Origin: Methylophaga frappieri
GTDB taxonomy: Bacteria; Pseudomonadota; Gammaproteobacteria; Nitrosococcales; Methylophagaceae
Direction: 5' to 3'
Length of the DNA: 32,000 bases
NCBI RefSeq assembly: GCF_000260965.1
Contig: NC_017856.1
Span: forward strand, 360,001 to 392,000
The position numbers and the translations under genes are program-made. Below the pieces are notes generated by a model. The model searched no databases. It worked only from the letters and a program-made list of their open reading frames with translations, and had not been told where the DNA came from. Of the stretch, positions 5,652 to 32,000 are shown in pieces. Every line of letters starts with the position of its first letter. Position 1 is the first letter of the stretch.

Positions 5652-5666
5652 GATTAAGGAAACAAA

Positions 5667-6362: not shown

Positions 6363-6372
6363 GGGCAGCACT

Positions 6373-7642: not shown

Positions 7643-7648
7643 CCCGCC

Positions 7649-9842: not shown

Positions 9843-9851
9843 AATGAATTT

Positions 9852-9886
9852 AAAAAAGCCCAGTTATTCGTAACAGGGCTTTTTTG
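9852..9886. terminator. Bidirectional rho-independent terminator
   Basis: AAAAAAGCCC-A-GTTA ttcg TAAC-A-GGGCTTTTTTG: a 9-position GC-rich stem (8 bp plus one A/A mismatch) with a TTCG tetraloop, flanked by an A-run and a T-run. It sits 2 nt from the stop of the minus-strand MCP gene and just after the tRNA fragment. Confidence 0.7.
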
Positions 9887-9888
9887 TT

Positions 9889-13401: not shown

Positions 13402-13403
13402 TA

Positions 13404-15107: not shown

Positions 15108-15131
15108 CCTGCTTTTCAAGGAGAATAAGGT

Positions 15132-16364
15132 ATGACAGCACCAAAATCACATCAGATCGTCATTATTGGCGGCGGCACAGCCGGCACCACTGTGGCAGCG
15201 TCACTATTGCGCAAGCGACCACAGCTGGATGTTGCTGTCATTGAACCAAGTGAAGTGCATTATTACCAACCGGCTTTTACCCTGGTCGGTGGTGGTACCT
15301 ATTCGCTGTCTAATACGGTCAAACCCCAACAAGCGACACTGCCCAAACAAGTTACCTGGATTCGTCAGTCAGCCACTCAAATTGATCCTGAACAAAAACA
15401 AGTTCACTTGCTAAATGACGAGATTATTAGCTATCAGTATCTGGTTGTTGCAACAGGCATACAGTTAGACTGGAATAAGATAGATGGTCTATTGGAAACC
15501 TTGGGCGAAAATGGTGTCTGCAGTAACTATAGCCCGCAATCTGTCGAATACACATGGCAGTGCATTGATAAATTTAGCGGTGGCAAAGCCCTGTTTACGC
15601 AACCCCCTGTGCCGTTTAAATGTGCCGGTGCACCACAAAAAATTGCTTACCTCGCCGCGGATCAGTTTCACAAACGCGGGTTGAGTAAACGGACAGAAAT
15701 CAATTTCTATAATGCGGGTGGTGCGCTGTTTAGTGTGCCTGACTTTATTCCTTATCTCGAACAAACCGCAGCCCGCCATGACGTTAATCTAAACTTTAAT
15801 CATAATTTGATTGCCGTTGATGGCCCGAATAAAAAAGCGCGGTTTGCCGTAACAGATGCGGATGGTAACAGCAGTGAAATCGAGCAGGATTTCGACATGT
15901 TGCATGTCACGCCGCCACAAAGTGCACCGGAATTTATCAAACAATCGCGTTTAGTCAATGAAGCCGGCTGGGTAACGGTTGATCAATTCACCTTACAACA
16001 TACGCAATTTGACGATATTTTCTCGCTGGGCGATGTCAGCTCATTGCCGACATCAAAAACTGCAGCAGCGATTCGTAAACAGGCGCCTGTCCTGGTACAA
16101 AATCTGTTATCCCGACTCGACGGCAAACCGCTGGATGCAAGGTATGATGGTTATACCTCCTGCCCGGTTGTAACCGGTTATGGCAAAGTGATGCTGGCCG
16201 AATTTGCTTATGATGCCGTTGTCACCCCAACGCTGCCATTAAACCCTTTCAAAGAGTCGCGGTTTTACTGGTTCGTCAAAAAATATTTCTTACCGCCCAT
16301 GTATTGGCATTTTATGCTCAAGGGCTTTGAGGCAGACATTACTCATAAACCATTGAAAAAATAA
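15132..16364 (+). CDS. sqr: Type II sulfide:quinone oxidoreductase-like FAD-dependent oxidoreductase
   Basis: 410 aa. Dinucleotide fold IVIIGGGTAGTT. Extended identity by eye to human/bacterial type II SQR: FKCAGAPQKIAYL, MLHVTPPQSAPEF, AGWVTVDQFTLQH, LGDVSSLPTSKTAAAIRKQAPV, YDGYTSCPVVTGYGKVMLAEFAY. Both redox Cys positions are present. AAGGAG ribosome-binding site, 24 nt after cysI. Confidence 0.8.
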   Translation: MTAPKSHQIVIIGGGTAGTTVAASLLRKRPQLDVAVIEPSEVHYYQPAFTLVGGGTYSLSNTVKPQQATLPKQVTWIRQSATQIDPEQKQVHLLNDEIISYQYLVVATGIQLDWNKIDGLLETLGENGVCSNYSPQSVEYTWQCIDKFSGGKALFTQPPVPFKCAGAPQKIAYLAADQFHKRGLSKRTEINFYNAGGALFSVPDFIPYLEQTAARHDVNLNFNHNLIAVDGPNKKARFAVTDADGNSSEIEQDFDMLHVTPPQSAPEFIKQSRLVNEAGWVTVDQFTLQHTQFDDIFSLGDVSSLPTSKTAAAIRKQAPVLVQNLLSRLDGKPLDARYDGYTSCPVVTGYGKVMLAEFAYDAVVTPTLPLNPFKESRFYWFVKKYFLPPMYWHFMLKGFEADITHKPLKK

Positions 16365-16462: not shown

Positions 16463-17164
16463 ATGACCGGATTTATCACACCCAATCCGCTGGAAAAACA
16501 GCTGAAAATCTTACCTGTAAACGCTGTTGCCGTTAATTTTGACACCGCACTTTATCACCGGGCGCTTTACACTGAAATGGGTATCCATTTTCCTGCCTCA
16601 TTACATGGTGCCGTTCAAAAACGACAGGCTGAATTTCTGGCCGGTCGATACGCTGCCCAATCAGCGCTAGCAATGATGGACATTACGAACCAATCCATCG
16701 CGATTGGTCAAAATCGCGCTCCAATCTGGCCACCGCATGTGATTGGCAGCATCACCCATGCCAATAATACGGCTATCTGTGTACTTGCTTATCAGATGGA
16801 TCTACTTTATCTCGGTATCGATCTGGAAAATATTGTTAGCGAAAAACTAGCGGGCGAATTAAAAAATAACATCATGGATACAAGTGAAAGACAGCTGTTA
16901 AAAAGCCTGAAAATACCTTTTGAGGAGGCTTTTAGCCTGGTTTTTTCTGCGAAAGAAAGCCTGTTTAAAGCACTGCACCCTTTTGTACAGCATTATTTTG
17001 AGTTCACGGCGGCACGTGTTGTGGCGCTTGATGCTAATACTGGTAGAATCGTATTGCAATTAACAGACACCCTGTCGGCCGATTTTCCAATTGACACTGA
17101 AATACATGGCCACTTTTTCCGTGTGAATCAACAAGTATTAACGGTGGTTTATCAGCTTCGTTAA
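16463..17164 (+). CDS. 4'-phosphopantetheinyl transferase, EntD/Sfp type
   Basis: 233 aa with PPTase motifs KRQAEFLAGRYAAQSAL, PIWPPHVIGSITHANNTAICV, LGIDLENIV and VFSAKESLFKAL. Adjacent to the NRPS locus. Confidence 0.8.
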   Translation: MTGFITPNPLEKQLKILPVNAVAVNFDTALYHRALYTEMGIHFPASLHGAVQKRQAEFLAGRYAAQSALAMMDITNQSIAIGQNRAPIWPPHVIGSITHANNTAICVLAYQMDLLYLGIDLENIVSEKLAGELKNNIMDTSERQLLKSLKIPFEEAFSLVFSAKESLFKALHPFVQHYFEFTAARVVALDANTGRIVLQLTDTLSADFPIDTEIHGHFFRVNQQVLTVVYQLR

Positions 17165-17211: not shown

Positions 17212-18534
17212 CTAAAATGCATAGCGGATAGCAAGTTCGACGAAATCATTATCTCGAAATGCCCCAATCCCCGTATCGGTATCACCACCAAAGGTCAGGC
17301 TTTTGATATCCAGTGATAGATTGTCATTGACCTGATAATTAGCAAACACTTCCAGCACATATTGTGCATCCCGCGCCGTTTGGCCGCGGATACCCAGTTC
17401 AAGCGCATCCCGATAAAAACCATTGGTAATCGCAAAGGTCAGCCCATAGTCATCTTCAGTTTCGTCGTAGCCATCCCAATAAATCTGAATATTCACATAA
17501 AGATCGGTGAGAAAGGTTCTATCCCAGCCTGTGACAACTTGCGTTAACGATTCGGTTTGCCCATTGATTGTTGGAAAATCCGGCGTATGACTGAATTCGG
17601 CTCTCAAGGTATTCTTGCCGATGCCAGAGGCCAGATTGATATTCCAGGTCTGAATTCGCTCGGGACGGAGCCAAATCCGGTTATCTTTATTCTCCAAAAC
17701 AATCGGTGCATCTGTATAACCATTGAAATAAGCCAATCCCCAGTCCAGTCCTTGGCCATAATGGGTAAAACGAATTCCTCCTTCATGAGGATGAGGATCG
17801 TCGATTTCTAACGCAATCTGTCCGTCTCGTTCCTGGCGACGTAATTGATTGATGAAAGGCATTTCCCATGGGCTGCCAAATTCAGCAAATTTTCGATCTC
17901 GTCCACGAGGTAACCAGACAGCTTCCCATATTCCCCAGTCTTGGTTATATTCAGTAAAAACCGCCCATGAAGGTCGTCGGGCAGAAGTCCGTCCATTACC
18001 GATTGGCTCTCGCATATCGACAGCATTGACCCTGTCAATGGTACTTCGGCCATCGGCAACGCCCCAGGCAATACGTTGTTTACCGATCATCAAGTCAAAC
18101 TGATCACCATCAAAAGAAAAATACGCTTCATTCAGATTAAACCGTTCAGCACTACGATAGTCGGTTGTAGCTGGGTCATACTCCATCTGGGCACTGGAAA
18201 AAAACAACCATTCGTCAGATTCATAACGTGTTTCCAGTTGCGTCAGCATCCGGTTCGATAACCAGTCACGCTGCGGCAATGCATAGCGGGAGCGCCATTC
18301 CAGATAGCCATTTACCTGCCAGTTTGTTTCAGTCGGCTCTGCTGACTCAGTCAAATCGAAATCAAACGGATCGGCTGCCTCCCCGGGACCTGCAGCAAAT
18401 GACGTCTTTGCTATCAACAGCAAGGCTGTCAACAATCCGGCAAAAGTCAGTTTAAGGCCGCTTCGAATATGATTGATATTTTGTTTGCCGGTATTAGCTG
18501 GCCATTGGCAATGCATCATCTGACGGATCATCAT
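17212..18534 (-). CDS. Predicted outer-membrane beta-barrel protein of unknown function (possibly DUF1302-like)
   Basis: 440 aa. Signal-like segment LKLTFAGLLTALLLIAKTSFAAG. Alternating hydrophobic beta-strand pattern rich in Y/W/G/D/N. C-terminal ...VELAIRYAF (terminal Phe, an OMP signature). No plug domain. Last gene of the minus-strand operon. The family call is tentative. Confidence 0.5.
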   Translation of the reverse strand: MMIRQMMHCQWPANTGKQNINHIRSGLKLTFAGLLTALLLIAKTSFAAGPGEAADPFDFDLTESAEPTETNWQVNGYLEWRSRYALPQRDWLSNRMLTQLETRYESDEWLFFSSAQMEYDPATTDYRSAERFNLNEAYFSFDGDQFDLMIGKQRIAWGVADGRSTIDRVNAVDMREPIGNGRTSARRPSWAVFTEYNQDWGIWEAVWLPRGRDRKFAEFGSPWEMPFINQLRRQERDGQIALEIDDPHPHEGGIRFTHYGQGLDWGLAYFNGYTDAPIVLENKDNRIWLRPERIQTWNINLASGIGKNTLRAEFSHTPDFPTINGQTESLTQVVTGWDRTFLTDLYVNIQIYWDGYDETEDDYGLTFAITNGFYRDALELGIRGQTARDAQYVLEVFANYQVNDNLSLDIKSLTFGGDTDTGIGAFRDNDFVELAIRYAF

Positions 18535-18548
18535 TTTCGCCGACTCAG

Positions 18549-19328
18549 CTAGCGTTTTAGTGCACTTTGCTGAAACAGACTGTCGTCCAGCCCCTGATTG
18601 TATTCAATATCCTGATATTGCATCAGGGTACGAGACGCTTTGCCATGGGTTTGCATAATCAGTTTGGTCGCTGTCCAAACACCATCAATCTCTTGAATAT
18701 CGCCTTGTATCATCGTTTTAAGCAGCCGACCACGTTTGTCGTAATACTCGACCTTATGTGCCAACCAGTGCTGTTTATCAATCCATATTTTTCGTTTGGC
18801 ATAGTTGGAAAAGCGTGCTTTGGCAGGAATGGGAACCGATTCTAAAAGATAACAGGCTCGCCCATCATGACAGTGCTCTGAGCCCAGCAAGGTATGGACG
18901 TCATCATCCACGGCCCGTTTTTCAATATCTTCATTGGCAAAGTCACTGCGCATAAACGCCCCTTTTTTACCACCGCCACTGATCCGTCGAACCAAATTCT
19001 CAGTCGGCAAATACAGCCAGAGATCATCTTCTTGGTCAACCGCGTTGTAGTTCCATGAGAGATATTGGGTATCCCGCACATCAGACGGCTCGTCAAAGCG
19101 GAATAAAGTACGATCATCGTCACCATATTTCTTTTCCCACATACGCATTTTCCGAACCAGTTTTTGGTTTCCGCGCTCAATGACCATAATGGCGTGACGA
19201 AAGCTGTCAGCAGCACTATCAGCCTGATCTGATCTCTGGGCAATATCACGGCCAGTCAACTCGGCGGCGATCGCGGCTGGCGTCATGTAAATAAAACAAC
19301 ATAAACTGAAAAAGAGACTTTTCATCAT
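18549..19328 (-). CDS. LolA-like 'outer membrane lipoprotein-sorting' family periplasmic protein
   Basis: Start chosen at MMKSLFFSLCCFIYMTPAAIA/AE (signal peptide, AGGA 5 nt upstream). The alternative ATG 19376 forms an ATGA overlap with the upstream gene. Family-typical core as I recall it: LTGRDIAQRSDQ....F......ERG......R.M..W.KKYGDD.RTLFRF.EP.DVRDT..L..........DLWLYLP....VRRISGGGKKGAFMRSDFANEDI. Confidence 0.65.
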   Translation of the reverse strand: MMKSLFFSLCCFIYMTPAAIAAELTGRDIAQRSDQADSAADSFRHAIMVIERGNQKLVRKMRMWEKKYGDDDRTLFRFDEPSDVRDTQYLSWNYNAVDQEDDLWLYLPTENLVRRISGGGKKGAFMRSDFANEDIEKRAVDDDVHTLLGSEHCHDGRACYLLESVPIPAKARFSNYAKRKIWIDKQHWLAHKVEYYDKRGRLLKTMIQGDIQEIDGVWTATKLIMQTHGKASRTLMQYQDIEYNQGLDDSLFQQSALKR

Positions 19329-19372
19329 TGATTCCTGTCTGGTTTCCAAAAAATAAAACGTGATCCCCGTTA

Positions 19373-21663
19373 TCATGCTGTCGGATCGAGTTGCTTTGAG
19401 GGCAAGGGTTTAAGCCAGCGCAACAGGATCGGTGCCAACATAAAGTCAGCGATTAACGCACTGATAAACGCCAGCCCGGTAGCCCAGGCAAATGTCTGTG
19501 GCCCCTGAAAATCGGATAGCAGAAAGCCGGAAAAACCGGCTGTTAACACCAAGGTTGTAAATAAAATGGCTCGACCAGTACTGCGCAGCGTTTTTTGATA
19601 GGCAAAGGCATGATCGGCTTCTTGATCAAAATGCTTTCGATAACGGAAAAAAAGTGAATGGTGTCATCGACCGCCACACCCAAAATCATCGGTGCCAAAA
19701 TTAACATCATGATGTTCACTTCAGCGCCGGCCCAACCTAGAACTCCCAGCGCCATGATCACCGGCAGCACATTTGGCACCATCGCGATCAAACCCAGCTT
19801 GATTGATCGTAGCACCAGAATCATCAACACCGTAATGGCCATAAATGCCAGCAAAAAACTGTGTAATTGTCCGGCAGCGATATGATCACCAAGTGCTCGA
19901 AACATCGCCAGTGTGCCGGTAAAGTGAATATTCAGATTGCTTAAATTGGCTTGCTGATAGGCCAAAATATCTGTTTCCAATTGCCGGATTTGTTGCAATC
20001 CCAGTGTTTTGGTTCTGACTTGAATACGTGCTTTATCGTAAGTAAAGCTGACGAACTGCTCCAATTGTTTGCCACCGCCAATTTCATAGAGCAATAAATA
20101 CTCAGCAATCTGAGAATCGGTCTCGGGCAAACGATAAAATACCGGCTTATTTTCATGAACAGCACGATGCATCTGCTTGAGCTGATCCACAATACTCGCG
20201 GTTTGCGCGACCAGCGGATGTTGTTCTAAATACTGTTGCAACTGATCCATATCATGGATTATCGATAAATCCTTGATACCTTCGGACTGACCAGTATCGA
20301 CAACGATTTCCAGGCTCATCACGCCACCCATCCGTTGCTCAACCTGTTCGAAAGATTGCCGCAGTGGATCGGAAACCGGTAAATCCCGCACCGTATTGGT
20401 CTCAATTTGTATCATCGTGATACCGTAAACCGCCATCGCAATCGCCACCGTAAAAATGCTGATAATCAGCCGGGGATAAAGGCCGACCCAGGTTGCAATT
20501 TTCAGTAGCAAGGTATCGTAAACATCCGATTTTGAAGGTGTATCCTCGTCAGCAATAGGCAATTTCCCAAATGACATGGCCGGCACAGCAAACAGAAACG
20601 TCAGCAAAAAAGCGATCCAGACACCAATCGCTGCTTGTGTACCCAACTCTTGAAGCTGTTTCAGATCTGTCGCCAGAAAGGCCAAAAAACCCGCCGCTGT
20701 TGTGACCGTCGTCAACAGGATCGGCATACTGACTCTGGACAATACCTGTTTTAATACCGCGCTTCGTGAGGGTTGACCTGCGACATGATTTTTCATTTCT
20801 GCCACAACGTGAACGGTATCACCGATGCCCACGCAAACCAGCAACGTTGGCACCATCACCGCCATCATATTTAACGAATAGCCAATGGTCGCTACCATAG
20901 CCAAGGTCCATATCACACTCAGCACAACCGTTGCCGCCGGAACCAGCACACCGCGCACTGAACGTGTAGTCAACCCTAACAGCAGGCAAACGCCAAGTAA
21001 TGATGCGCCGACCCAGATCGGGCCTTCCTTTTCTGTTTTGCCATCAATGTAAGCATTCATGACCGGAATACCAACCACATGGGCATCCAGCTCAGGAAAG
21101 TCGGCCAGTATCGCATTCACCACTGGCGGACTCTCTTTACGTGGATTGGTACCGGAATCCGGATAGTTTTCAAATTCCAGCAAGATGCCCAGTGTCTGCC
21201 CATCTGCCGAAATCAGCCGATTACGGTATGCCGGGTCATTTACCGCATGCTGGATCTGCTGTTGAATCTCTGCCGAGCTCATCCCCATGGATAACAGCTC
21301 GGCAATTTCAATGCCGCCAGGAACGCCAGTAATGGATTCAACATTACCAATCCAGGTAAGGTCGCTCAAATGCGGTACTTCCAGTTCCAGACGATCAACC
21401 AGTTCGCCTGCACTTGCCAGTTTTTCGCTATCAACAGGTTGATCATCAGCTATCAGAATAAAAATGAAGTCATCATTACCAAATGTTTGTTTAAAAGCAT
21501 CCAGTTGAACACGGGTTTGATCGCTGCTCAAAAAAAAGCTTTCATTGGAATTATCTACTTTCAGGTTCGCCAATTGGTTAAAGGCCGCCAAGGTAACCAG
21601 CCCTACCAAAATCAAACACCAGACCCGATAACGCAAGATGGTCTCAATGATGCGTGCTTGCAT
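19373..21663 (-). pseudogene. COG1033/MMPL-like RND-superfamily exporter, interrupted by a 1-nt frameshift in a homopolymer
   Basis: The 706-aa ORF (19543-21663) has TM1, a large periplasmic loop, a TM bundle, a second loop and ...PMILGVAVDDTIHFF. It then decays into non-homologous sequence. Shifting frame at the A7 run (19647-19653, T7 on the coding strand) gives FFRYRKHFDQEADHAFAYQKTLRSTGRAILFTTLVLTAGFSGFLLSDFQGPQTFAWATGLAFISALIADFMLAPILLRWL...*. This is the expected RND C-terminus. It ends in a TGA (19375-19373) that overlaps ATG 19376 of the next ORF. The span is 2291 nt, so one extra base restores a 763-codon gene. Confidence 0.75.
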
Positions 21664-21687
21664 GAATTAATTTTCCTTCGACAGTGC

Positions 21688-23445
21688 CTATTTATCGGCC
21701 GACTGAGATTGCCAAAGCTGATAATACAAGCCCTGACGCTGCAATAATGACTGGTGATTGCCTTGTTCAACGATGCGTCCTTTATCCATCACCAAAATCT
21801 GATCGGCATTTCTGACGGTACTTAACCGATGCGCTACCATGATGACTACGCGACCGACGACTAAACGATTTAACGCATTTTGAATGGCATGTTGGGCACT
21901 GGCGTCCACCGCCGCAGTAGCCTCATCCAATAACAAAACAGGTGCATCTTTAAGTAAAGCACGTGCGATGGAAAGACGCTGACGCTCTCCCCCCGATAAA
22001 CGCATCCCACCCTCGCCAACGCGCGTTTCATATTGCTCGGGCAGCCCCATGATGAAATCATGACAACTGGCTGATTGGCAGGCCGCCATGATCTGCGCAT
22101 CGGAAGCGTCGGGCCGACCAATACGAATATTTTCTCGAATACTGCCATCGAAAAGCTGTACATGCTGAAACACGGTGCTGATATGTTGATATACCCCATC
22201 GGTACCGATTGCCCTGAGATCCTCGTCACCTATCGTGACGCTACCCGACTGCGGGTCATAAAACCGTGCCAGCAAATTCAGTACCGTGCTTTTACCCGCA
22301 CCAGAAGGGCCCACTATTGCCGTAATGCTGTTTTGGGGAACGGAAAAACAGATGTCCTGCAAACTGCTTTGCTGGTCATAACTGAAACAGACATGGTCAA
22401 AACGAATCGCGAAATGCGAAGGCGTAACCGGCACAGCTGGCTCTGATAACTGCGTCGTGCTGAACAATGTTTCGATTTTGACTTCACTTTGTAATGCATG
22501 ACGCAGAATGGTCAGATAACCCGACATTTCCAATAACGGCTCAAGCAGTTTATGGGCCAATAACAAAAACAAAAGCCAGCTCGCCATCACTGTGGCTGTA
22601 GACTGACTTGGCAACATTTGACTGGCACACACTAACAACAACGCAACCAGCCCCAGCTCCAGCATTAAACGATAAACAACGACCGGGCCTGCTCCCCACG
22701 TTTCCACGCGAACACTGCTTTGGCGTAATAAATCAAACTGCTGATTCAGGCGGCTTAACCAGATACCGGTTCGATTAAACAAACGCAATGTCCGAATGCC
22801 GGAAACGAACTCGACAACCACGCCTGCCGTTTCCTGAAATCGTGTTTGCCTTTGCTGTCCAACGCGTTCAAAAAAACGCTTGGCTGCATTTAATATCCAA
22901 CACGCAAACGGCAAACCGACAATTAATGCCGTTGCCAGTTGCCAATCCAAATACAGTAACACCACAAACCACAATACCGGCGTAACACCAGCAGCAAAGA
23001 CATCGGCAGCAACATGGGTAAAGATACCCTCCACCCGTTTGATATCATCCGTCAAAATATCGGCCAACTGTCCGGTGCGATAATGATAAAGCTGACCCAG
23101 TGGCAATTGCCGAACACGATCAATCAATCGGGCGCGATAGCTTTGCATGATGTGATAGCTACCCATAAAGCTGTGGTGTTGCCCCCGCCAGGAACATAAT
23201 AACTGCCCCATGAAAATGGCCAGCAGCAGGCCGGCAATCCCCCAAACCGTCTGCCCGTCCGCAACGGCATTGCCATTGAGTACATTGATTAGCCAAAAAT
23301 AACACACCAGTAACGGCAAAATTTCAAAGCAGCGTTCCAATACTCTCAGACACAGCCCCCAATAAAACTCGCCCGCAGAACAATCACTACGACGAATGAC
23401 ACGCCGAATACTTTGCAAAATGCCGGTCTGATTCTCCTTAGCCAT
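21688..23445 (-). CDS. ABC transporter, fused permease/ATPase (exporter fold), YbtQ/IrtB-like
   Basis: Start trimmed to ATG 23445 (MAKENQTGILQ...), overlapping the upstream gene's end by 8 nt. Six-TM domain, then Walker A GPSGAGKST, signature LSGGERQRLSIARA, Walker B VLLLDEAT and H-loop MVAHRLS. Confidence 0.85.
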   Translation of the reverse strand: MAKENQTGILQSIRRVIRRSDCSAGEFYWGLCLRVLERCFEILPLLVCYFWLINVLNGNAVADGQTVWGIAGLLLAIFMGQLLCSWRGQHHSFMGSYHIMQSYRARLIDRVRQLPLGQLYHYRTGQLADILTDDIKRVEGIFTHVAADVFAAGVTPVLWFVVLLYLDWQLATALIVGLPFACWILNAAKRFFERVGQQRQTRFQETAGVVVEFVSGIRTLRLFNRTGIWLSRLNQQFDLLRQSSVRVETWGAGPVVVYRLMLELGLVALLLVCASQMLPSQSTATVMASWLLFLLLAHKLLEPLLEMSGYLTILRHALQSEVKIETLFSTTQLSEPAVPVTPSHFAIRFDHVCFSYDQQSSLQDICFSVPQNSITAIVGPSGAGKSTVLNLLARFYDPQSGSVTIGDEDLRAIGTDGVYQHISTVFQHVQLFDGSIRENIRIGRPDASDAQIMAACQSASCHDFIMGLPEQYETRVGEGGMRLSGGERQRLSIARALLKDAPVLLLDEATAAVDASAQHAIQNALNRLVVGRVVIMVAHRLSTVRNADQILVMDKGRIVEQGNHQSLLQRQGLYYQLWQSQSADK

Positions 23446-25225
23446 ATTGCGCTCCCGACGACCCGTTGACAGGCACGCCAATTGACCAGCTTTCCGTGTT
23501 TTGTTGCCACTGCCACTGTTGTTGGTAATAAGCATTGCTCTGCAACAAGGTACTGTGCGTGCCACAGGCCTGAATTTCGCCCTGTTCGATGATAACGATC
23601 TGATCCGCATCCTCACGTCCCTGGCTACGATGCGCAATAATTAGGAAAGTTTTGTCCGGATAATGCGTTTTAAGTCCCTGATAAAAGGCCCGTTGCGTTT
23701 GGTTATCCAGGGAGGCAGTCGCTTCATCAAGCACCACAATTGGCGTATCAGCCAACAGCGCCCGGGCAATGGCAATACGTTGCCTTTCACCTCCTGAAAG
23801 CCGGATCCCTTGCTCCGCAACCAAGGTGTCATATCCATCAGGCAGGCTGGCAATCAGCGTTTCAGCCTGAGCAGCGCCAATAGCCGTCGCAATTTCTGTC
23901 TTGCTGGCATGGGGACTACCCAGTCGCAGGTTGTCAATTATCGAGCCTTTAAATAAAAAGACCTCCTGACTGGCGACCGCGATGAGCGCAGCACGCTGCT
24001 GCTGAGAAAGCGTAGACAGTGACGTCCCGTTAATGAGAATCCTGCCCGAATTGGGCAGCAGTAATCCACCCAATAACTGTGCCAAGGTAGATTTACCAGC
24101 ACCGGATGGTCCCAAAATGACGGTATGACTACCTGCTACGAAGGTCAGATCAATCTCTTTGAGTATTGAACGCAGACCATAGCGGAAACTGACCCGTTCA
24201 AAAATAAGGGTGACGGGCTGTTGAATATCAACCGGTTGACCAGCCTGCTCCGGCGTCAAATCCAGTATCGGCTGCAAATGTTGTATACCGGCCAATACTT
24301 CATTGATCTCCATAAAGAAACGACTGACTTTAAGCAGTGGCTTCAACATGCCTGATCCCAGGATAACTACCATAATTATCTGAGATAAGGTCACCTCAGA
24401 CGCGTTATAAAGTCCAATCCCGACCGGCAAAATAAACAAGACATTAGCCCCCAGCAGACTGGTGAATAAGGCCCAACCCGGTACGGTTTTCTGAGTCAGA
24501 TCGGTGATTAAATCGTAATAACATGCCAGCCGGTAACGCATGACCTGAAAGGTGGAGGAATCCTGACGAAACATTTTCATGACCGGCATATTGCGCAGAT
24601 ATTCCACCGTCGCACTGCTTAGCCCGGCAGCAGTTTTGTTATGTTGCTCGTATTGGGCGCTGGTATCCCGCATAAACAAGGTGGAGGCCAATATGGCGAG
24701 TGGCACGACAGCCAGAGCGGCCAAGGCCAGACGCCAATCTATCCAAAATAAGAAAACCGTGACCAGCAGCGGACTTAGTAAAGCAGCAAAAACTTCAACG
24801 CTATGATGCGAAATGACCATCTCGACATTTTCAACGTCTTGTAAGACGGATTGTTTGAGCCGACCTGACGGATTTTTTTGCAACCAGGCCAGCGGGGCAT
24901 TGGCCAGCTGAGAGACGAGTTGCTTGCGGGTTCCGGCTAAAATTTTAAAAGCGGCCTGATGACTGAAAAAATAGGCCAATCCATACAAAACGGTTTTTAA
25001 AACCAATGCCACGGCCAGCCAGCCGGCCAACGACAAAAACTGTTGTGGTAAGTCAGCAGCTTGGTTGAGGATGGCGTCAATTGCCTGAAACAGGATCCAG
25101 TAAGGCAACAATTCACAAATAACGGCCAACGCAGTCAATAAAAGGGCAAAAAATAACTGTCCCTTTTGCGCGCCAGCCAATTTTAGCAGCGTTGGCCACC
25201 CCGTGCCCTCTGCTGATTTTTCCAT
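23438..25225 (-). CDS. ABC transporter, fused permease/ATPase (exporter fold), YbtP/IrtA-like
   Basis: 595 aa. Six-TM domain, then GPSGAGKST, LSGGERQRIAIARA, IVVLDEATASLD and IIAHR. First gene of the minus-strand operon that diverges from the NRPS genes. Confidence 0.85.
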   Translation of the reverse strand: MEKSAEGTGWPTLLKLAGAQKGQLFFALLLTALAVICELLPYWILFQAIDAILNQAADLPQQFLSLAGWLAVALVLKTVLYGLAYFFSHQAAFKILAGTRKQLVSQLANAPLAWLQKNPSGRLKQSVLQDVENVEMVISHHSVEVFAALLSPLLVTVFLFWIDWRLALAALAVVPLAILASTLFMRDTSAQYEQHNKTAAGLSSATVEYLRNMPVMKMFRQDSSTFQVMRYRLACYYDLITDLTQKTVPGWALFTSLLGANVLFILPVGIGLYNASEVTLSQIIMVVILGSGMLKPLLKVSRFFMEINEVLAGIQHLQPILDLTPEQAGQPVDIQQPVTLIFERVSFRYGLRSILKEIDLTFVAGSHTVILGPSGAGKSTLAQLLGGLLLPNSGRILINGTSLSTLSQQQRAALIAVASQEVFLFKGSIIDNLRLGSPHASKTEIATAIGAAQAETLIASLPDGYDTLVAEQGIRLSGGERQRIAIARALLADTPIVVLDEATASLDNQTQRAFYQGLKTHYPDKTFLIIAHRSQGREDADQIVIIEQGEIQACGTHSTLLQSNAYYQQQWQWQQNTESWSIGVPVNGSSGAQYG

Positions 25226-25458
25226 GCCTCACCTTCTTGCTGCTATCAACATTCCTAAACGGCGATTCTCACCCCGATTCAGATACCACTTTTATAACCG
25301 CAGGAATAGTAGCTGAAAGCCCATGACGATACTGCCCGAATCCGATGAATCCTCCCCCAATCTGATGATTATTCACGCATCATAAAAAACGGATAACTAC
25401 TGCACATTTCCACCGGAAAATCCGGATTCGGGTAATGCGATCCCGTTTCGGGTAGAGT

Positions 25459-25478
25459 TGAAAATAATTCTCATTCAA
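25459..25478. promoter_or_regulatory. Candidate Fur box in the divergent siderophore promoter region
   Basis: TGAAAAT-A-ATTCTCA matches the 7-1-7 Fur core TGATAAT-n-ATTATCA at 12/14, or about 12/19 against GATAATGATAATCATTATC. It overlaps a TTGAAA -35-like hexamer. A weaker site is at 25362-25381 (TGATGATTATTCA / reverse AATAATCATCA). Confidence 0.45.
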
Positions 25479-25620
25479 TATTCGCACACTTGCAAATTTC
25501 ATCTCGAAAAAATGCTTTCTATGTCTCTCTACAATTCGGGAAACCGCAGCTAATTAAAAGTAGGCCTTTGATTTAAAAAGACTTACATCCCATCTTAACT
25601 AAACTTCAGGGCGTTAAATT

Positions 25621-28600
25621 ATGGCATATACAGACTTTACAAACTGGCCCATGGATGACCGTCAAAAATATCTGCAAGCAGGCTACTGGTGCCCCGTCAC
25701 ATTAGGACAACAGCTAGCCAACTGGGCACAAAGATATGGCGATAAGACTGCATTGGTTGACGAAAAAGGCACACTTAGCTATCACGAGTTGACTATCCAG
25801 GCAGATCAGACTGCAGCCGGTTTTTATAATCTGGGAATCCGCCGGGACGATCGGGTTTTAGTACAACTTCCCAATTGCAACGAGTTTGTTGTGACTTGTT
25901 TTGCTTTATTTCGCCTTGGCGCACTACCGATCCTGACAATGCCTGCCCAGCGTGAGAATGATATTTCCGCACTCACCGAACTGGCTGAACCCGTTGCCTA
26001 TATTGTGGCTGATAATTTCCTCGGGTTTGACTACCTTACGCTTGCCGAGAAGATGCAGCAGAAGCATGCCTGTTTAAAGCAGGTGATTGTCGTTGGTCGT
26101 AATTCCGGTTCATTTATCCGATTCGATACCCTGCAACATGAACCGGTCACGCTTGCCGAACCTGAATTTAGTGACCCTGCACTACTATTACTTTCCGGTG
26201 GCACAACGGGTACCCCCAAACTCATTCCACGCACCCATGCTGACTACATCTACAATGCCACAGCTTCTGCCGAATTATGCGAATTATCGGAAGCAACTGT
26301 TTATCTGGCTGCCTTACCGGTAGCACATAATTTTCCGTTGGCCTGTCCCGGTATTCTCGGTACCTTAAACGCCGGTGGCAAAGTGGTCATGGCCAAAACA
26401 CCAGGCAATGACGAAACGTTTGATTTAATCGAACGCGAGAAAGTCACCATCACTGCCCTCGTACCACCTTTAGTACAACTCTGGATTTCTGCTCGTGAAT
26501 GGGACAACACGGATATTTCCAGCCTGCGTCTATTACAAGTTGGTGGCTCTCGTTGTGATGCCGATCTGGCAAAACAGGTTAGTCCCGTGCTCGGCTGTCA
26601 ACTGCAACAAGTCTTTGGCATGGCTGAGGGATTACTTTGCTATACCCGTCTTGATGATCCTGACGACGTCATTATCAATTCGCAAGGCCGACCACTTTGT
26701 CCTGATGATGAACTGCGCATTGTTGATCAGAATGGCTTATCAGTCGCACCGGGCGATGTTGGTGAACTCCATACAAAAGGCCCATACACCTTGCGTGGTT
26801 ATTATCGGGCAGTCGAACACAATGCCTCGACATTTACCAACGATGGCTTTTATCAATCCGGAGACCTCGTTCGCATGACAGAACAAGGGAATCTTATTGT
26901 TGAGGGCCGAATCAAGGAACAAATTAATCGTGCGGGAGAAAAAATCGCTGTTGCTGAAGTTGAACATTTACTGAATCAGCATCCTGAAATTGAAAAATCT
27001 GTGTTGATTCCAGTGCCGGATAGGCATCTGGGCGAACGAAGCTGTGCGTTTATTATTACCGGTTCATCTCCATTAACCTTACAAGCCGTGCATCAATTTC
27101 TGGCTGACAAAGGCTTACCGCGATACAAATTGCCCGATCAATTAGTGCCTGTAACGAGCTGGCCACTCACCGCCGTCGGCAAAATTGATAAAAAGCGACT
27201 TCTTGTCCAAGCTGAAGAAGCCGCCGCAACACAACCTGTAACGCTGTCCACAAAAAACTATGCTGAGAACCGAATTAAGGTGAAAAGCGATCCGCTGGAT
27301 CTGGCCATGAAACTGGCTCGCTGTGGACTATCAGAAGATTATGTCATCTACGAAAAAGACACTGAATGGTCAATTGGTATCGGTAAATATGCCTCTATTA
27401 CAGGCGATAAAAACCAGGCAACAATGCGCTGTGGTGAGCAAAAAGAAATTTTTCAAAAACCACAACTAACTGCTGCTATCCATCAGGCAATGCAGGTGAT
27501 TCCGGTTCATGACTGGCGTGCCTATGGTTCAGCCAAGTTTGAGCTCTCTCATTTGTTTTACGGTATTCCCATGCAGCAGGACTCGGGAAACACACCTTTA
27601 CTGGATGTCTTTATTCCTCGTTACGAAATTCGTTTCAATCAAGGTGAAGCATTATTACGCACTATCGAAACCGCACAGTTGGACAAACTGGTGCTACTGG
27701 TTCAGCAACTCGATGAACAACCCACCGCCGACAAGACTCAAGGCAAGCCTGTTTTTGCTGACATCGAAAATCATCAATCGGCAGTCTATCAGGACAATGT
27801 CCAAAAAGCCGTTGAGGAAATCAAAGCCAATCAATACCAAAAAGTGATTCTTTCAAGACGAATTCCTCTGCCAAGTGATGTTGATATTATCGAAAGTTTT
27901 CGCATTGGCCGGCGAATGAATACACCGGCAAGAGCCTTCTTGGCTAATTACAGCGGTGTGCAACTTGCTGGATTCAGTCCCGAAACTGTGGTTGAAGTCT
28001 CTTCTGATGGCTGGGTGAGTACTCAACCGCTTGCCGGAACACGATCACTAGGAGACACTCCTGAGCAAGAACAGCAACTTCGTCAGGAATTGCTCAGCGA
28101 TACCAAGGAAATCGCGGAGCATGCGGCCTCAGTCAAACTTGCCCAGGAAGAGTTGGAAACAATCTGTACGCCAGAAAGCATCAATGTAAGTGAGTTCATG
28201 GGTATTTCGCGACGCGGTAGCGTGCAACACCTGACATCGCGACTGAAAGGCAAGCTGAGTGAAGGCAAACATGCATGGGATGCTTTCGAAGCACTATTCC
28301 CTGCGGTAACTGCATCTGGTATTCCCAAAAAAGGGGCGCTCGATGCGATCCAGCGTCTGGAACCCATCCAACGCGATTGGTATAGCGGCTGTGTAATGAT
28401 TGTTGATGAAAATGGCGCCATGGATGCTGCATTGGTGCTGCGCAGTATTTATCAACAAGGTGATGCCTGCTGGCTACAAGCCGGTGCGGGCATTGTCGAC
28501 CAATCCAAACCCGAGCGTGAACTTCAGGAAACGGTTGAAAAACTGAGTTGCATATCTCAACACCTGGTGAGCCGGCAACCCTCAATTGAATCTGAGTCCA

Positions 28601-28626
28601 CAACGAAGTCGACGGAGGTTTTGTAA
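25621..28626 (+). CDS. Bifunctional fusion: aryl-acid (salicylate)-AMP ligase (EntE/YbtE/MbtA-like, aa 1-~530) plus salicylate synthase (Irp9/YbtS/MbtI-like, aa ~545-1001)
   Basis: A single uninterrupted 1001-aa ORF. N-terminal half: LLLSGGTTGTPKLIPRTHADY, ALPVAHNFPLACPG, QQVFGMAEGLLCYTRLDD, YQSGDLV, GRIKEQINRAGEKIAVAEVE, LPRYKLPD...TAVGKIDKKRL. C-terminal half (chorismate-utilising fold): PLAGTRSLG, DTKEIAEHAASV, RRGSVQHLTSRL.G.L, WDAFEALFPAVTASGIPK, RDWYSGCV, DAALVLRS, LQAGAGIVDQSKPERELQET.EKL. Confidence 0.85.
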   Translation: MAYTDFTNWPMDDRQKYLQAGYWCPVTLGQQLANWAQRYGDKTALVDEKGTLSYHELTIQADQTAAGFYNLGIRRDDRVLVQLPNCNEFVVTCFALFRLGALPILTMPAQRENDISALTELAEPVAYIVADNFLGFDYLTLAEKMQQKHACLKQVIVVGRNSGSFIRFDTLQHEPVTLAEPEFSDPALLLLSGGTTGTPKLIPRTHADYIYNATASAELCELSEATVYLAALPVAHNFPLACPGILGTLNAGGKVVMAKTPGNDETFDLIEREKVTITALVPPLVQLWISAREWDNTDISSLRLLQVGGSRCDADLAKQVSPVLGCQLQQVFGMAEGLLCYTRLDDPDDVIINSQGRPLCPDDELRIVDQNGLSVAPGDVGELHTKGPYTLRGYYRAVEHNASTFTNDGFYQSGDLVRMTEQGNLIVEGRIKEQINRAGEKIAVAEVEHLLNQHPEIEKSVLIPVPDRHLGERSCAFIITGSSPLTLQAVHQFLADKGLPRYKLPDQLVPVTSWPLTAVGKIDKKRLLVQAEEAAATQPVTLSTKNYAENRIKVKSDPLDLAMKLARCGLSEDYVIYEKDTEWSIGIGKYASITGDKNQATMRCGEQKEIFQKPQLTAAIHQAMQVIPVHDWRAYGSAKFELSHLFYGIPMQQDSGNTPLLDVFIPRYEIRFNQGEALLRTIETAQLDKLVLLVQQLDEQPTADKTQGKPVFADIENHQSAVYQDNVQKAVEEIKANQYQKVILSRRIPLPSDVDIIESFRIGRRMNTPARAFLANYSGVQLAGFSPETVVEVSSDGWVSTQPLAGTRSLGDTPEQEQQLRQELLSDTKEIAEHAASVKLAQEELETICTPESINVSEFMGISRRGSVQHLTSRLKGKLSEGKHAWDAFEALFPAVTASGIPKKGALDAIQRLEPIQRDWYSGCVMIVDENGAMDAALVLRSIYQQGDACWLQAGAGIVDQSKPERELQETVEKLSCISQHLVSRQPSIESESTTKSTEVL

Positions 28627-31600
28627 TGTCGATGAGCAACACTGCTCAAATGCTGGAGCCGTTGAGCCGGGAAGGTATCATTGCGCAACTTGAAACGCTG
28701 CTCAATCAAAAGCTCAATGAACACCACACCACCAACCTGATTGAACTGGGTCTCGATTCGCTGCAAATCATGCGCTTGGTCAATCATTGGCGGCGTGCCG
28801 GTGCCAAGGTTACCTTCGCCAAGCTTATTGAAAAACCAACCTTGGAAAACTGGTTACCATTACTAACGGCAGAACCCGCTAATAGTCCAACTTTAGAGTT
28901 TGATGACCTGGTAAAGCAGACGGCGGCCAATTACGACAGTGAGCAACCATTCGACTTAACGGATGTGCAATATGCATATTGGATAGGTCGTGGTGATGAT
29001 CAAGCACTTGGTGGTATCGGCTGTCATGCCTATCTTGAAATTGACTCACTTTACGCCCCTGTTGATCCAGTCCGTTTGCAACATGCTTGGCATCAGTTAA
29101 TCAGTCAACACAGCATGCTCCGGGCTCGCTTTACTGAAGATGGCAAGCAATTTGTCTCTGATGAAATGCCTCAACCTGCGTTAACAGTTCATGATTATCG
29201 TCACTTGTCTTCCAACGAAGCAGAGCAGCATGCTCAAGCTATTCGCTCGCGACTTTCACACCGCCGACTGGAAATTGACTTAGGTCAAGTGATGGGCTTG
29301 GAATTGACTCTGTTTCCCGATGCCAAATCACGTATCCACTTTGATATCGATTTGCTGGTTGCTGATGTGCAAAGTCTGCATATTTTACTGCGTGATTTAG
29401 CCACCGCTTATGCCTCGGATAACGCCCTTCCAGCCGATTCAGGTTGGCGCTTTGCTCACTATCTGGCCATAGAGAATAGTCGTAATTTAGATAAAATTCA
29501 GCAGGACAAACAATACTGGCAAAATCGCTTATCGGATTTACCAACAGGCCCACAACTACCTTTGGCAGTCGATCCTGCCACTATCCAACGTCCAGAATTT
29601 TCACGTCGAACCTACTTCCTGAAGCCTGAGCAATGGCAAGCTTTGCGTCAGTTCGCCGCTTCACAACAGGTAACGCCATCGATGGTTTTGGCCACCGCTT
29701 ATGCCGAAGTCTTATCGCGCTGGAGCGCCGAGCCACAATTCTTATTAAATATGCCGTTATTTGATCGACAGACCGATCATGCCGGTATCGATAATGTCGT
29801 TTCCGACTTCACTAATCTACTGCTATTACAATGTGATCACCGACAGCCAGCTACTTTCATCAATCGGGTTAAACAAATCCAGCAGCAATTTCACGCTGAT
29901 GTAGCGCATGCCAGTTATTCCGCTGTCAGCATTCAACGTGATTTAGTCAAACAAGGACTGACTGAAGGCGTTGCTGCACCGGTGGTATTTGCGTGTAACC
30001 TCGGCACACCGCTACTCACCGAGCAATGTCACACCAGTTTGGGTGATCTGCATTACATGATTTCACAAACGCCCCAAGTGTGGCTCGACCATCAACTTTA
30101 TGAAATGCATGATGGTTTGTTGCTTGCCTGGGATGCAGTCGATGCCTTGTTTCCTGCACAATTAATTGACGACATGTTCAGTGCCTATACGAACCTTCTC
30201 GAATGGTTAGCCGCTGATCGTCAGCATTGGCAACAAATACCGCCAGAATTAATGCCTGCTTATCAATTAACCACCCGCGAAGCAGTCAACCAAACCCAAG
30301 CCCCCATAATCGACCGGGTGTTGCATCAAGGTGTGTTTGAACACGCCAAACGCTCAGCAGACAAGGTAGCCCTTATCTCAGACAATGCGTCTGTCACTTA
30401 CGCTGCATTGGCCGATAAAGCCCTGCGTATCGCCCGTCTGTTACACGATAACGGTCTGCAATCCGGTGATCCCGTGGCAGTCACATTGCCAAGAGGCATT
30501 GACCAGATTGCCGCTGTATTGGGTATTTTGGCCGCAGGCGGTTGTTATGTGCCTGTCGGTATTCATCAACCCGCTGCTCGGCAGGCCAAAATCCATCACA
30601 CCGCTGGCATAAAACTAGTGTTAACGGCTTCCGATTATCTTGAGGTGGAGACCCTGGCCTCGGTCACGCGATTGGATGTGGCGCTAGCCCGTTCACTGTC
30701 GCCTTTGGCTGAACCGGTTTCGGTCTCGCCGCAGCAGGCGGCGTATATCATCTTTACTTCCGGTTCGACCGGTGAGCCTAAAGGTGTGGAGATGGCCCAT
30801 GCGGCTACCGCCAATACCATTGACCATTTAAATCAGCGTTATCAGGTGGGACAGCATAGTACAGGCCTTGCCATCTCGGCGCTCGATTTCGATTTGTCGG
30901 TCTACGATATCTTTGGCTTGTTACAGGTCGGTGGCGCGCTGGTGTTGGTAGATGAGTCTCAACGGCGGGATGCAAATGCCTGGTTGAGTTTGATTCATCA
31001 ACATCAGGTCACGCTCTGGAATAGTGTGCCGGTGTTGTTGGATATGTTGTTGGTGGTCGCACAGAACGATAGCCGTCAATTGCCGTTTGAGCAGGTGATG
31101 TTGTCGGGCGATTGGATTGGTTTGGATTTACCGCCTCGCCTATTGGCCACGACCCAAACGATGCCGGCATTTATTGCGATGGGCGGTGCCACGGAAGCGG
31201 CGATTTGGTCGAATGTGTTTGAGGTGAATACGGCGATGGAAGATGGCCACTTGCCTTCGCAGTGGACGTCAATTCCCTATGGGAAGCCGTTAGCCAATCA
31301 GGCTTATCGCGTGGTCGATAGTTTGGGACGTGATTGTCCGGACTGGGTGCCGGGTGAGTTATGGATTGGTGGCCTCGGTTTGGCTAACGGCTATCGCGGT
31401 GATGCGACGCTGACGGCAGAGCGGTTTGTTGAGGTGGCGGGCAAGCGTTGGTATCGCACGGGTGACCGGGGCCGTTATTGGCCTGATGGCAATCTGGAGT
31501 TTTTAGGTCGGATTGACCATCAGGTGAAAGTACGTGGTCACCGGATTGAGTTAGGTGAAATCGATGCGGCGATGGCGACACTCCCCGAGATTGCCAGAGC

Positions 31601-32000
31601 GGTGGCGGTAACAGTAGGACAGCCGCCGGCATTAGCGGCCGCGTTTGTGGCAAAAGCCTCTAACTCGCTCGATACGGATGCCATTCGACAGGCGTTACAG
31701 CAAATCTTACCGGATTATATGGTACCGCCTACTTTGGTGCAGATGGCGGATTTACCGCTCAGTGCCAATGGCAAGCTCGATAGAAAACAGCTCGCCGCTC
31801 TGCTTGTGGAGCAGGTCGCAACCACCGAACACATCATCACGCCACCACAGACCACAGCAGAAAAAGTGGTCGCTGAACTGTGGCAGTCATTACTCGGGAT
31901 TGCGTCGGTTGGAAGAGAAAGTAATTTCTTTACTTTAGGTGGTGATAGTTTATTGGCCACACAGGTGGTGGCACAGTTAAGACAGCAAGGCTTGAGTGCT
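28626..32000 (+). CDS. Non-ribosomal peptide synthetase, ArCP-Cy-A(Cys-like)-PCP..., 3' end beyond the window
   Basis: ATG 28626 overlaps the upstream TAA (TAATG). The frame is open to base 32000, so it is absent from the ORF track. ArCP: ELGLDSLQIMRL (Ser codon 28758-28760). Cy domain: FDLTDVQYAYWIGR and DIDLLVADVQS (DxxxxD at 29349-29366, replacing HHxxxDG). A domain: YIIFTSGSTGEPKGV (from 30744), ALDFDLSVYDIF, MGGATEAAIW, YRTGDRGRY, GRIDHQVKVRGHRIELGEI, NGKLDRK. PCP: FFTLGGDSLLATQ (Ser codon 31947-31949). Confidence 0.9.
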   Translation, partial: MSMSNTAQMLEPLSREGIIAQLETLLNQKLNEHHTTNLIELGLDSLQIMRLVNHWRRAGAKVTFAKLIEKPTLENWLPLLTAEPANSPTLEFDDLVKQTAANYDSEQPFDLTDVQYAYWIGRGDDQALGGIGCHAYLEIDSLYAPVDPVRLQHAWHQLISQHSMLRARFTEDGKQFVSDEMPQPALTVHDYRHLSSNEAEQHAQAIRSRLSHRRLEIDLGQVMGLELTLFPDAKSRIHFDIDLLVADVQSLHILLRDLATAYASDNALPADSGWRFAHYLAIENSRNLDKIQQDKQYWQNRLSDLPTGPQLPLAVDPATIQRPEFSRRTYFLKPEQWQALRQFAASQQVTPSMVLATAYAEVLSRWSAEPQFLLNMPLFDRQTDHAGIDNVVSDFTNLLLLQCDHRQPATFINRVKQIQQQFHADVAHASYSAVSIQRDLVKQGLTEGVAAPVVFACNLGTPLLTEQCHTSLGDLHYMISQTPQVWLDHQLYEMHDGLLLAWDAVDALFPAQLIDDMFSAYTNLLEWLAADRQHWQQIPPELMPAYQLTTREAVNQTQAPIIDRVLHQGVFEHAKRSADKVALISDNASVTYAALADKALRIARLLHDNGLQSGDPVAVTLPRGIDQIAAVLGILAAGGCYVPVGIHQPAARQAKIHHTAGIKLVLTASDYLEVETLASVTRLDVALARSLSPLAEPVSVSPQQAAYIIFTSGSTGEPKGVEMAHAATANTIDHLNQRYQVGQHSTGLAISALDFDLSVYDIFGLLQVGGALVLVDESQRRDANAWLSLIHQHQVTLWNSVPVLLDMLLVVAQNDSRQLPFEQVMLSGDWIGLDLPPRLLATTQTMPAFIAMGGATEAAIWSNVFEVNTAMEDGHLPSQWTSIPYGKPLANQAYRVVDSLGRDCPDWVPGELWIGGLGLANGYRGDATLTAERFVEVAGKRWYRTGDRGRYWPDGNLEFLGRIDHQVKVRGHRIELGEIDAAMATLPEIARAVAVTVGQPPALAAAFVAKASNSLDTDAIRQALQQILPDYMVPPTLVQMADLPLSANGKLDRKQLAALLVEQVATTEHIITPPQTTAEKVVAELWQSLLGIASVGRESNFFTLGGDSLLATQVVAQLRQQGLSA

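Follow-up and report, generated by a model that had tools for sequence, protein, structure and literature searches.

In the yersiniabactin (YbtE plus YbtS/Irp9), pyochelin (PchD plus PchA/PchB) and mycobactin (MbtA plus MbtI) systems, the ligase and synthase activities that make and activate salicylate reside on separate proteins, and salicyl-AMP is used to load an aryl carrier domain (ArCP), followed by condensation with cysteine by a heterocyclisation (Cy) domain. Both activities are found on one polypeptide, ligase first and synthase second, in PxbJ, which belongs to the pxb (piscibactin/photoxenobactin) cluster of Xenorhabdus and Photorhabdus, a thiazoline siderophore NRPS cluster. Without pxbJ neither piscibactin nor photoxenobactin is made, and complementing the deletion brings both back, such that genetically PxbJ stands in for YbtS and YbtE together (Shi et al., ACS Chem Biol 2022, PMC9396620). 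The term "bifunctional salicylate synthase", as used in several papers, refers only to the synthase-plus-lyase activity of Irp9. Searches of the literature found nothing relevant on Methylophaga siderophores or under the wording "fusion" or "fused" for such enzymes, and no biochemistry on a purified member of the fused family, the Methylophaga frappieri protein included, was found in the searchable literature.

In M. frappieri, a marine methylotroph and in this respect unlike the pxb hosts, we analyzed a window of 32,000 nucleotides in which a fused gene occupies positions 25,621 to 28,626 of the forward strand as a single ATG-to-TAA open reading frame. Its product of 1001 aa is 100% identical to an M. 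frappieri protein labelled "2,3-dihydroxybenzoate-AMP ligase". Pfam places AMP-binding (PF00501) at aa 33-395 (E 1e-72), AMP-binding_C (PF13193) at aa 446-521 and Chorismate_bind at aa 721-974 (E 5e-79), and together with the NCBIfam domains this agrees with the first-pass annotation, which had described one polypeptide with the ligase N-terminal to the synthase; the strings it quoted are likewise all present, namely HNFPLACPG (aa 236-244), AEGLLCY (aa 335-341), GKIDKKRL (aa 520-527) and the linker string QAEEAAATQPVTLSTKNY (aa 530-547). Both domains are complete and carry all their catalytic residues. The aryl-acid adenylation domain (aa 1-527; 25,621-27,201, forward strand) has the P-loop SGGTTGTPK at aa 192-200 and the A10 lysine K521, all invariant across 119 fused homologues, while the Irp9/MbtI-type salicylate synthase domain (aa 547-1001; 27,259-28,623, forward strand) has the catalytic pair K741 and E788 and the Mg2+ ligands E830, E833, E967 and E970. 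Between them lies a linker of about 19 aa (aa 528-546; 27,202-27,258, forward strand), which is rich in Ala, Gln, Glu and Thr, unconserved, and modelled by AlphaFold with pLDDT <50 at aa 538-541.

The protein is very probably a bifunctional enzyme of the PxbJ type, standing at the start of a pathway to a salicylate-capped thiazoline siderophore, with a short flexible tether that most likely gives proximity rather than a sealed channel. The homologues from Xenorhabdus and Photorhabdus (P0115, L003, L004, and L075) are also single ORFs, with 52-53% identity over the full length. The catalytic and specificity residues are shared with enzymes of the YbtE/PchD/MbtA and Irp9/MbtI types, and PchE is the closest counterpart of the partner NRPS; a single salicylate synthase domain is present here, in contrast to the two-enzyme salicylate route (PchA plus PchB) of pyochelin.

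The fusion had been taken for an unusual architecture, a view that does not hold, as the same three-domain architecture is found in 120 of the 120 best database matches (49-67% identity), which come from Alpha-, Beta-, and Gammaproteobacteria, Desulfobacterota and Bacillota. The fusion occurs widely in bacteria and has a described precedent in PxbJ of Xenorhabdus, which makes it ordinary, neither new nor a surprise to specialists, and the M. frappieri protein is one more, uncharacterised representative of a family of fusions already known. NCBI routinely names these fused homologues "salicylate synthase". The conservation figures given here rest on 119 fused homologues, each about 980-1050 aa long and drawn from independent genomic and metagenomic sources; the genome scan for fused loci is a sample rather than a count per species, and M. 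frappieri is not among the matches listed. Loci of Streptomyces and Rhodococcus appeared as fused in the tblastn summary, but ORF analysis resolves them into separate genes, mostly in synthase-to-ligase order, and we claim no fusion in Actinomycetota. Fusions with the opposite domain order, Chorismate_bind followed by the ligase, also occur (P0206 and P0214); their N-terminal chorismate-binding part is shorter, and they are probably EntC-EntE-type DHB (2,3-dihydroxybenzoate) enzymes. The same stand-alone ligase family is further found in Chorismate_bind-ligase-isochorismatase (P0133), ligase-isochorismatase (P0134), thioesterase-ligase (P0130) and PPTase-ligase (P0137) fusions.

The surroundings of the fused gene have the character of a siderophore cluster, with a PchE-like NRPS, ABC transporters and a phosphopantetheinyl transferase (PPTase). 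The stop codon of the fused gene overlaps the start codon of the NRPS gene in the string TAATG (28,624-28,628, forward strand), and the NRPS (28,626-32,000, forward strand, extending past the window end, where the rest of the cluster also lies) has a carrier domain at its N terminus (LGLDS, Ser45 at 28,758-28,760), which makes an aryl carrier acceptor available, followed by a Cy domain (DLLVAD, the DxxxxD motif), an A domain and a PCP; the translational coupling to an NRPS that starts with an ArCP, as noted in the first-pass annotation, is thereby confirmed. Over aa 35-1010 this NRPS matches PchE (7emy) at 1.7e-259. It is coupled directly downstream of the fused gene, unlike the NRPS genes of the pxb loci, which are located upstream. 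An orthologous NRPS follows the fused gene immediately in 7 of the 12 fused genome loci: at L001, L002, L005, and L007-L010 its match starts no more than about 50 nt from where the fused ORF ends, and in several of these at or before the last base of that ORF. On the other side, a divergent intergenic or promoter region (25,226-25,620) separates the fused gene from two divergently transcribed ABC permease/ATPase genes (21,688-25,225, reverse strand), which probably serve siderophore export or import. A weak Fur-box-like site in this region (25,460-25,478, 13/19) is uninformative, with 15 equally good sites in the window, many of them intragenic, vs. about 5 in shuffles. Farther away, an EntD-like 4'-phosphopantetheinyl transferase (16,463-17,164, forward strand; 119 bits with the NCBIfam EntD model, below its cut-off of 169) is a candidate for priming the ArCP and PCP domains.

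The analysis established the domains of the gene product, its catalytic and specificity residues, the order of the neighbouring genes and the spread of the family. On the PxbJ-type reading the pathway would begin at the C-terminal domain, which is predicted to convert chorismate via isochorismate to salicylate by means of the Lys741/Glu788 pair and Mg2+. The N-terminal adenylation domain would then convert salicylate to salicyl-AMP and move the salicyl group in trans onto the phosphopantetheine of Ser45 in the aryl carrier domain of the NRPS, after which the salicyl group would be condensed with cysteine, the presumed substrate of the PchE-like NRPS (ArCP-Cy-A-PCP). The putative role of the tether is a modest one, as the benefit of the fusion most likely consists of fixed 1:1 co-expression, co-inheritance and some proximity, and not of a sealed channel.

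A channelled route from chorismate through salicylate and salicyl-AMP to salicyl-S-ArCP had been suggested in the first-pass annotation, and in its strict form would require a defined inter-domain interface or tunnel through which salicylate reaches the active site of the ligase directly from that of the synthase, bypassing bulk solvent. One domain order and a mostly short linker (median 17 aa) are retained across several phyla, in over 100 sequence clusters, and this persistence could reflect selection for kinetic coupling, compatible with both the pTM and the linker variability discussed below. The ligase and synthase halves also give congruent nearest neighbours, and therefore evolve as a unit. 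Moreover, Irp5, a related ligase that stands alone, takes either salicylate or DHB as substrate (PMC12421891), so there could be some advantage in handing salicylate over preferentially. Nevertheless, we regard true channelling as unlikely. The linker is unconserved (mean conservation about 0.30) and ranges from 9 to 53 aa across the fused homologues, and AlphaFold models both domains of the fused protein confidently (mean pLDDT 92.6) but gives no confident placement of one relative to the other (pTM 0.58). In the trees of both domains (neighbor-joining, without bootstrap), the two-gene versions of Photobacterium alginatilyticum, Methylobacterium tarhaniae and a Desulfobacterales MAG branch within the fused family. 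Such splits originated three or more times within the family, in one case with about 2 kb separating the two genes; the split at L050 could be a draft-assembly frameshift. Variable linker, low inter-domain confidence and split versions taken together, there is no measured support for channelling. In addition, aryl-acid ligases occur in fusions with a wide range of other pathway partners, and the classical systems function with separate synthase and ligase proteins. In ANL enzymes the C-terminal subdomain of the ligase rotates between the adenylation and thiolation states, and a rigid tunnel is disfavoured because it is this subdomain that bears the synthase and must rotate. A looser version, in which the tether holds the synthase beside the mobile C-terminal subdomain of the ligase and thereby allows preferential capture of salicylate, or couples the synthase to the conformational cycle of the ligase, is likewise doubtful. 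If true, such a functional tether would guard a ligase of broad aryl-acid specificity against mis-priming by DHB and other benzoates and would reduce salicylate leakage, and the fused family would lend itself naturally to testing for channelling into NRPS initiation.

A second alternative is that the ligase activates 2,3-DHB, or that the C-terminal domain is an isochorismate synthase only and feeds a DHB or PchB-type route. The deposited name favours a DHB ligase, as do the best NCBIfam match of the N-terminal half, a DHB-AMP ligase model, and the top PDB match, DhbE, which is narrowly ahead (1.2e-177) of the salicylate-AMP ligase 5wm2 (2.2e-177), with PchD at 3.3e-160. However, both DHB-AMP ligase equivalog models of NCBIfam score below their cut-offs (648.7 vs. 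723.55 and 583.8 vs. 783), and the substrate pocket has the residues of salicylate-activating enzymes and not those of DHB enzymes, as had been proposed. In HNFPLACPG (26,326-26,352, forward strand) Cys242 takes the position of DhbE Ser240, and in AEGLLCY (26,623-26,643, forward strand) Leu339 takes that of DhbE Val329; in alignments to PDB entries these two positions are C/I in PchD and C/L in 5wm2 and 5kei, vs. S/V in the DHB ligases DhbE and 6e8o, so that Cys with Leu or Ile is the pattern common to PchD, the Streptomyces salicyl-AMP ligase and the MbtA-type enzyme. Among the fused homologues, Cys is found at the Cys242 position in 117 of 119, Leu or Ile at the Leu339 position in 115 of 119, and Cys340 in all 119. 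The Tyr236-to-Phe change is not discriminating, since the DHB ligase 6e8o also has Phe. The 2,3-DHB ligase identity is thus rejected on model cut-offs and pocket residues, and the N-terminal half is predicted to be a salicylate-[ArCP] ligase-type aryl-acid adenylating enzyme of the ANL superfamily (YbtE/PchD/MbtA type).

For the C-terminal half, the NCBIfam salicylate synthase model TIGR03494 covers aa 564-983 with 478 bits, above its cut-off of 325, while the isochorismate synthase, TrpE and PabB models score under theirs. The nearest solved structures are Irp9 (1.8e-87) and MbtI (1.3e-85), far ahead of the isochorismate synthase DhbC (1.6e-27). K741, E788, E830, E833, E967, and E970 align to MbtI K205, E252, E294, E297, E431, and E434, and identical counterparts also exist to MbtI T271, H334, T361, Y385, R405, and K438; across the 119 homologues each of these active-site positions is either invariant or conserved to at least 90%. 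The alignment to MbtI thus upholds the claim of a complete Irp9/MbtI-type domain with its catalytic residues retained, and this half is predicted from its sequence to be a salicylate synthase of the MST family, although the isochorismate-pyruvate lyase activity that would make salicylate the product of the same active site has no accepted sequence determinant, and sequence does not separate salicylate synthase from isochorismate synthase with certainty. The window also holds no isochorismatase (EntB-type) or EntA-type gene among its ORFs of at least 150 aa, as previously stated for the entA/entB-type DHB genes, and no PchB-type gene is visible in it. A DHB or isochorismate-only role is therefore very improbable.

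That a lost stop codon or an assembly frameshift joined two adjacent ordinary genes, for which one could cite disruptions in two close relatives, the stop and new ATG at the junction in P. alginatilyticum and the frameshift within the ligase part in Psychromonas hadalis, is effectively refuted because 119 independent homologues share the continuous frame, and further contradicted by a source contig of 2.70 Mb and by a junction that has no in-frame start and no promoter- or terminator-like site; a scan for such sites across the whole gene gave none above shuffle expectation.

The name under which the M. frappieri protein is deposited, 2,3-DHB-AMP ligase, is due for correction to bifunctional salicylate synthase/salicyl-AMP ligase, and a salicylate-capped siderophore of the thiazoline type is a probable product of this marine methylotroph. 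The practical value of the finding is modest. The fused family is large and conserved, and its natural split variants make it a convenient system in which to study whether there is any kinetic benefit in fusing a precursor enzyme to an NRPS-loading enzyme.

The gene at 25621..28626 (+) is a single ATG-to-TAA frame of 1001 aa in the ORF listing, in which Pfam places AMP-binding (PF00501, aa 33-395, E 1e-72), AMP-binding_C (PF13193, aa 446-521) and Chorismate_bind (PF00425, aa 721-974, E 5e-79), while the NCBIfam salicylate synthase equivalog TIGR03494 matches aa 564-983 with 478 bits at a cut-off of 325. All three sources agree with the first-pass annotation that one ORF carries a ligase followed by a synthase, and every peptide string it cited was found where it had been placed. 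Over its full length the ligase half matches aryl-acid adenylating enzymes of known structure, namely DhbE (1.2e-177), the Streptomyces salicylate-AMP ligase 5wm2 (2.2e-177) and PchD (3.3e-160). Its pocket motifs are HNFPLAC(242)PG and AEGLL(339)CY, compared with HNFTLCCPG/AEGLICY in PchD, HNFALACPG/AEGLLNY in 5wm2 and HNFPLACPG/AEGLLNY in the MbtA-type enzyme 5kei, all of which use salicylate, and with HNYPLSSPG/AEGLVNY in DhbE and HNFPMSSPG/AEGLVNY in 6e8o, which use 2,3-dihydroxybenzoate (DHB). Among these structures, Ser-to-Cys and Val-to-Leu/Ile divide salicylate from DHB enzymes, and Cys242 and Leu339 put the window protein in the salicylate class with PchD, 5wm2 and 5kei (Leu/Ile), as had been proposed from the same two positions. 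The Tyr-to-Phe change in the HNF/HNY motif is not diagnostic, as the DHB ligase 6e8o also has Phe.

Of the solved structures, Irp9 (1.8e-87) and MbtI (1.3e-85) come closest to the synthase half, and DhbC, an isochorismate synthase, is a much weaker match (1.6e-27). Counting along the printed MbtI alignment, every residue compared is identical (K205→K741, E252→E788, L268/T271→L804/T807, E294/E297→E830/E833, H334→H870, T361→T897, Y385→Y921, R405→R941, E431/E434→E967/E970 and K438→K974), as expected of the complete Irp9/MbtI-type domain that had been claimed. A 100% identical M. frappieri entry is deposited as 'iron aquisition 2,3-dihydroxybenzoate-AMP ligase', a name that is probably wrong and incomplete, since neither of the two equivalog models for 2,3-DHB-AMP ligase spanning aa 4-531 reaches its cut-off (648.7 vs 723.55 and 583.8 vs 783), the pocket residues are of the salicylate type and a salicylate synthase makes up half of the protein.

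The TAA of the fused gene (28624-28626) overlaps the ATG (28626-28628) of a PchE-like NRPS on the + strand, which extends beyond 32000 and carries, in order, a carrier domain (…LIELGLDS…, Ser45), a heterocyclisation (Cy) domain with DLLVAD as its DxxxxD signature, an A domain and a PCP. Its closest solved relative is PchE (1.7e-259 over aa 35-1010), the dihydroaeruginoate synthetase of pyochelin, and it is the expected acceptor for salicyl-AMP. The proposed TAATG coupling to this ArCP-first NRPS recurs as a close layout in relatives: an ArCP-Cy orthologue (48-61% identity) directly follows the fused ORF in seven of 12 fused loci (Frateuria, Paenibacillus, two Brevibacillus, Psychromonas, Pseudomonas karstica and Burkholderia multivorans), its match starting at most ~50 nt from the end of the fused ORF and in several cases at or before the last base, so that the coupling is a family trait. 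No EntA, EntB or PchB-type genes occur among window ORFs of at least 150 aa, in keeping with the reported lack of entA/entB-type DHB genes.

Domains, residues, gene layout and homology are directly observed, and from the sequence we infer all enzymatic activities of the following pathway. The synthase domain would convert chorismate via isochorismate to salicylate, using the Lys741/Glu788 pair and Mg2+, and the ligase domain would activate salicylate as salicyl-AMP. The NRPS would then receive the salicyl group in trans, on its Ser45 phosphopantetheine, and the Cy domain would join this group to cysteine, forming a hydroxyphenyl-thiazoline; cysteine specificity is suggested by the A-domain motifs FDLSVYD…LWNS…GGATEAAIW and the likeness to PchE.

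Divergent from the fused gene, DUF1302, LolA-like/DUF1329, MMPL/RND-like and two ABC permease/ATPase genes, the latter upstream of the fused gene, lie co-directionally at 17212-25225 (-) and may serve siderophore export or uptake. ORF 21688-23637 is listed with a TTG start that reaches 200 nt into the upstream ORF; the true start probably lies further downstream. A Fur-box-like site in the divergent promoter (GAAAATAATTCTCATTCAA, 25460-25478, 13/19 to consensus) carries little meaning, as matches of equal quality are too common across the window. An EntD-like phosphopantetheinyl transferase (PPTase) is encoded at 16463-17164, and just upstream (11608-16364) are sulfite reductase flavoprotein-/hemoprotein-type (cysJ/cysI-like) and sulfide:quinone reductase-like genes, whose location close to what is probably a cysteine-using siderophore cluster may be fortuitous or reflect sulfur supply. 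The block at 1188-9604, with a TonB-dependent receptor (Xanthomonas/Caulobacter type), a phytase-domain protein, ExbB, a TonB-like protein and the alkaline phosphatase PhoX, is apparently for phosphorus scavenging and unrelated to the siderophore genes.

The fusion had been regarded as unusual, yet PF00501, PF13193 and PF00425 occur together in 120 of the 120 best matches (49-67% identity; mostly 975-1070 aa, one an 800-aa fragment), clusters that sum to ~780 member sequences, most of them named 'salicylate synthase' by NCBI. Sources include Pseudomonas (with P. aeruginosa), Pseudoalteromonas, Halomonas, Xenorhabdus, Burkholderia, Achromobacter, Azospirillum, Desulfobacter, Brevibacillus, Paenibacillus and Bacillus. 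Clustering at 50% leaves about seven full-length clusters, hence one coherent family, below which rank stand-alone ligases (up to ~50% identity) and synthases (~47-51%). Xenorhabdus and Photorhabdus loci in the genome sample have the same single ORF and domain order (52-53% identity to the window protein), and PxbJ of the pxb (piscibactin/photoxenobactin) cluster is likewise one polypeptide with the ligase domain before the synthase, although the pxb loci are arranged unlike the window's fused gene and directly following NRPS. Deletion of pxbJ removes all products and complementation restores them (Shi et al., ACS Chem Biol 2022, PMC9396620). The window gene is therefore an uncharacterised member of the published PxbJ-type family; the first-pass functional assignment was essentially right, the claim of novelty wrong. 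The ligase family is also found as Chorismate_bind-ligase (reverse order), Chorismate_bind-ligase-isochorismatase, ligase-isochorismatase, thioesterase-ligase, PPTase-ligase, ligase-PCP-reductase, ligase-dehydroquinate synthase and ligase-Lys/Orn monooxygenase (N-monooxygenase) fusions (proteins P0133, P0134, P0130, P0137, P0152, P0171, P0192, P0206 and P0214), which look like ordinary joins of neighbouring genes of one pathway; those with dehydroquinate synthase and monooxygenase may be of separate interest.

The fused ORF is present in 12 of 80 loci of the genome sample. In Photobacterium alginatilyticum (L011, 9902-13059; 61% identical) there are two genes in ligase-synthase order, joined as …LAIEND-TAA, a 5-nt spacer and the ATG of the synthase gene, which looks like a natural fission within the fused family. 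The two frames are separate and adjacent in Methylobacterium tarhaniae, and the genes lie ~2 kb apart in a Desulfobacterales MAG. In neighbour-joining trees of each half, built without bootstrap values, these three split versions nest within the clade that holds all the fused proteins, which is moderate evidence that the covalent link was repeatedly lost while the genes were kept; outside this clade lie the separate genes of Streptomyces, in which the synthase mostly precedes the ligase. Psychromonas hadalis (L007, 7180-10294), the closest genome relative in the sample (63% identity), has a frame break within the ligase part, where ORFs 7180-8082 and 8018-10294 overlap, a sign either of a pseudogene or of a sequencing error in the draft.

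A channelled route from chorismate to the carrier domain had also been suggested, for which the variable linker, the predicted structure and the split versions give no support. Across an alignment of 119 fused proteins, the linker, taken from the A10 motif to the conserved Tyr547, measures 9-53 aa (median 17); its composition favours Ala, Arg, Thr, Gln, Glu, Ser and Pro, and its mean conservation is ~0.30 vs 0.7-0.85 for the domain cores. An AlphaFold2 model built on this alignment folds both domains (mean pLDDT 92.6) but reaches a pTM of only 0.58, with pLDDT < 50 at aa 538-541 of the linker, so that the predicted relative placement of the domains is not confidently defined. The C-terminal subdomain of an aryl-acid ligase is mobile, which may contribute to the low pTM. 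A sealed channel between the domains is unlikely, and the main gain from the fusion is most plausibly equal expression and joint inheritance of the two activities.
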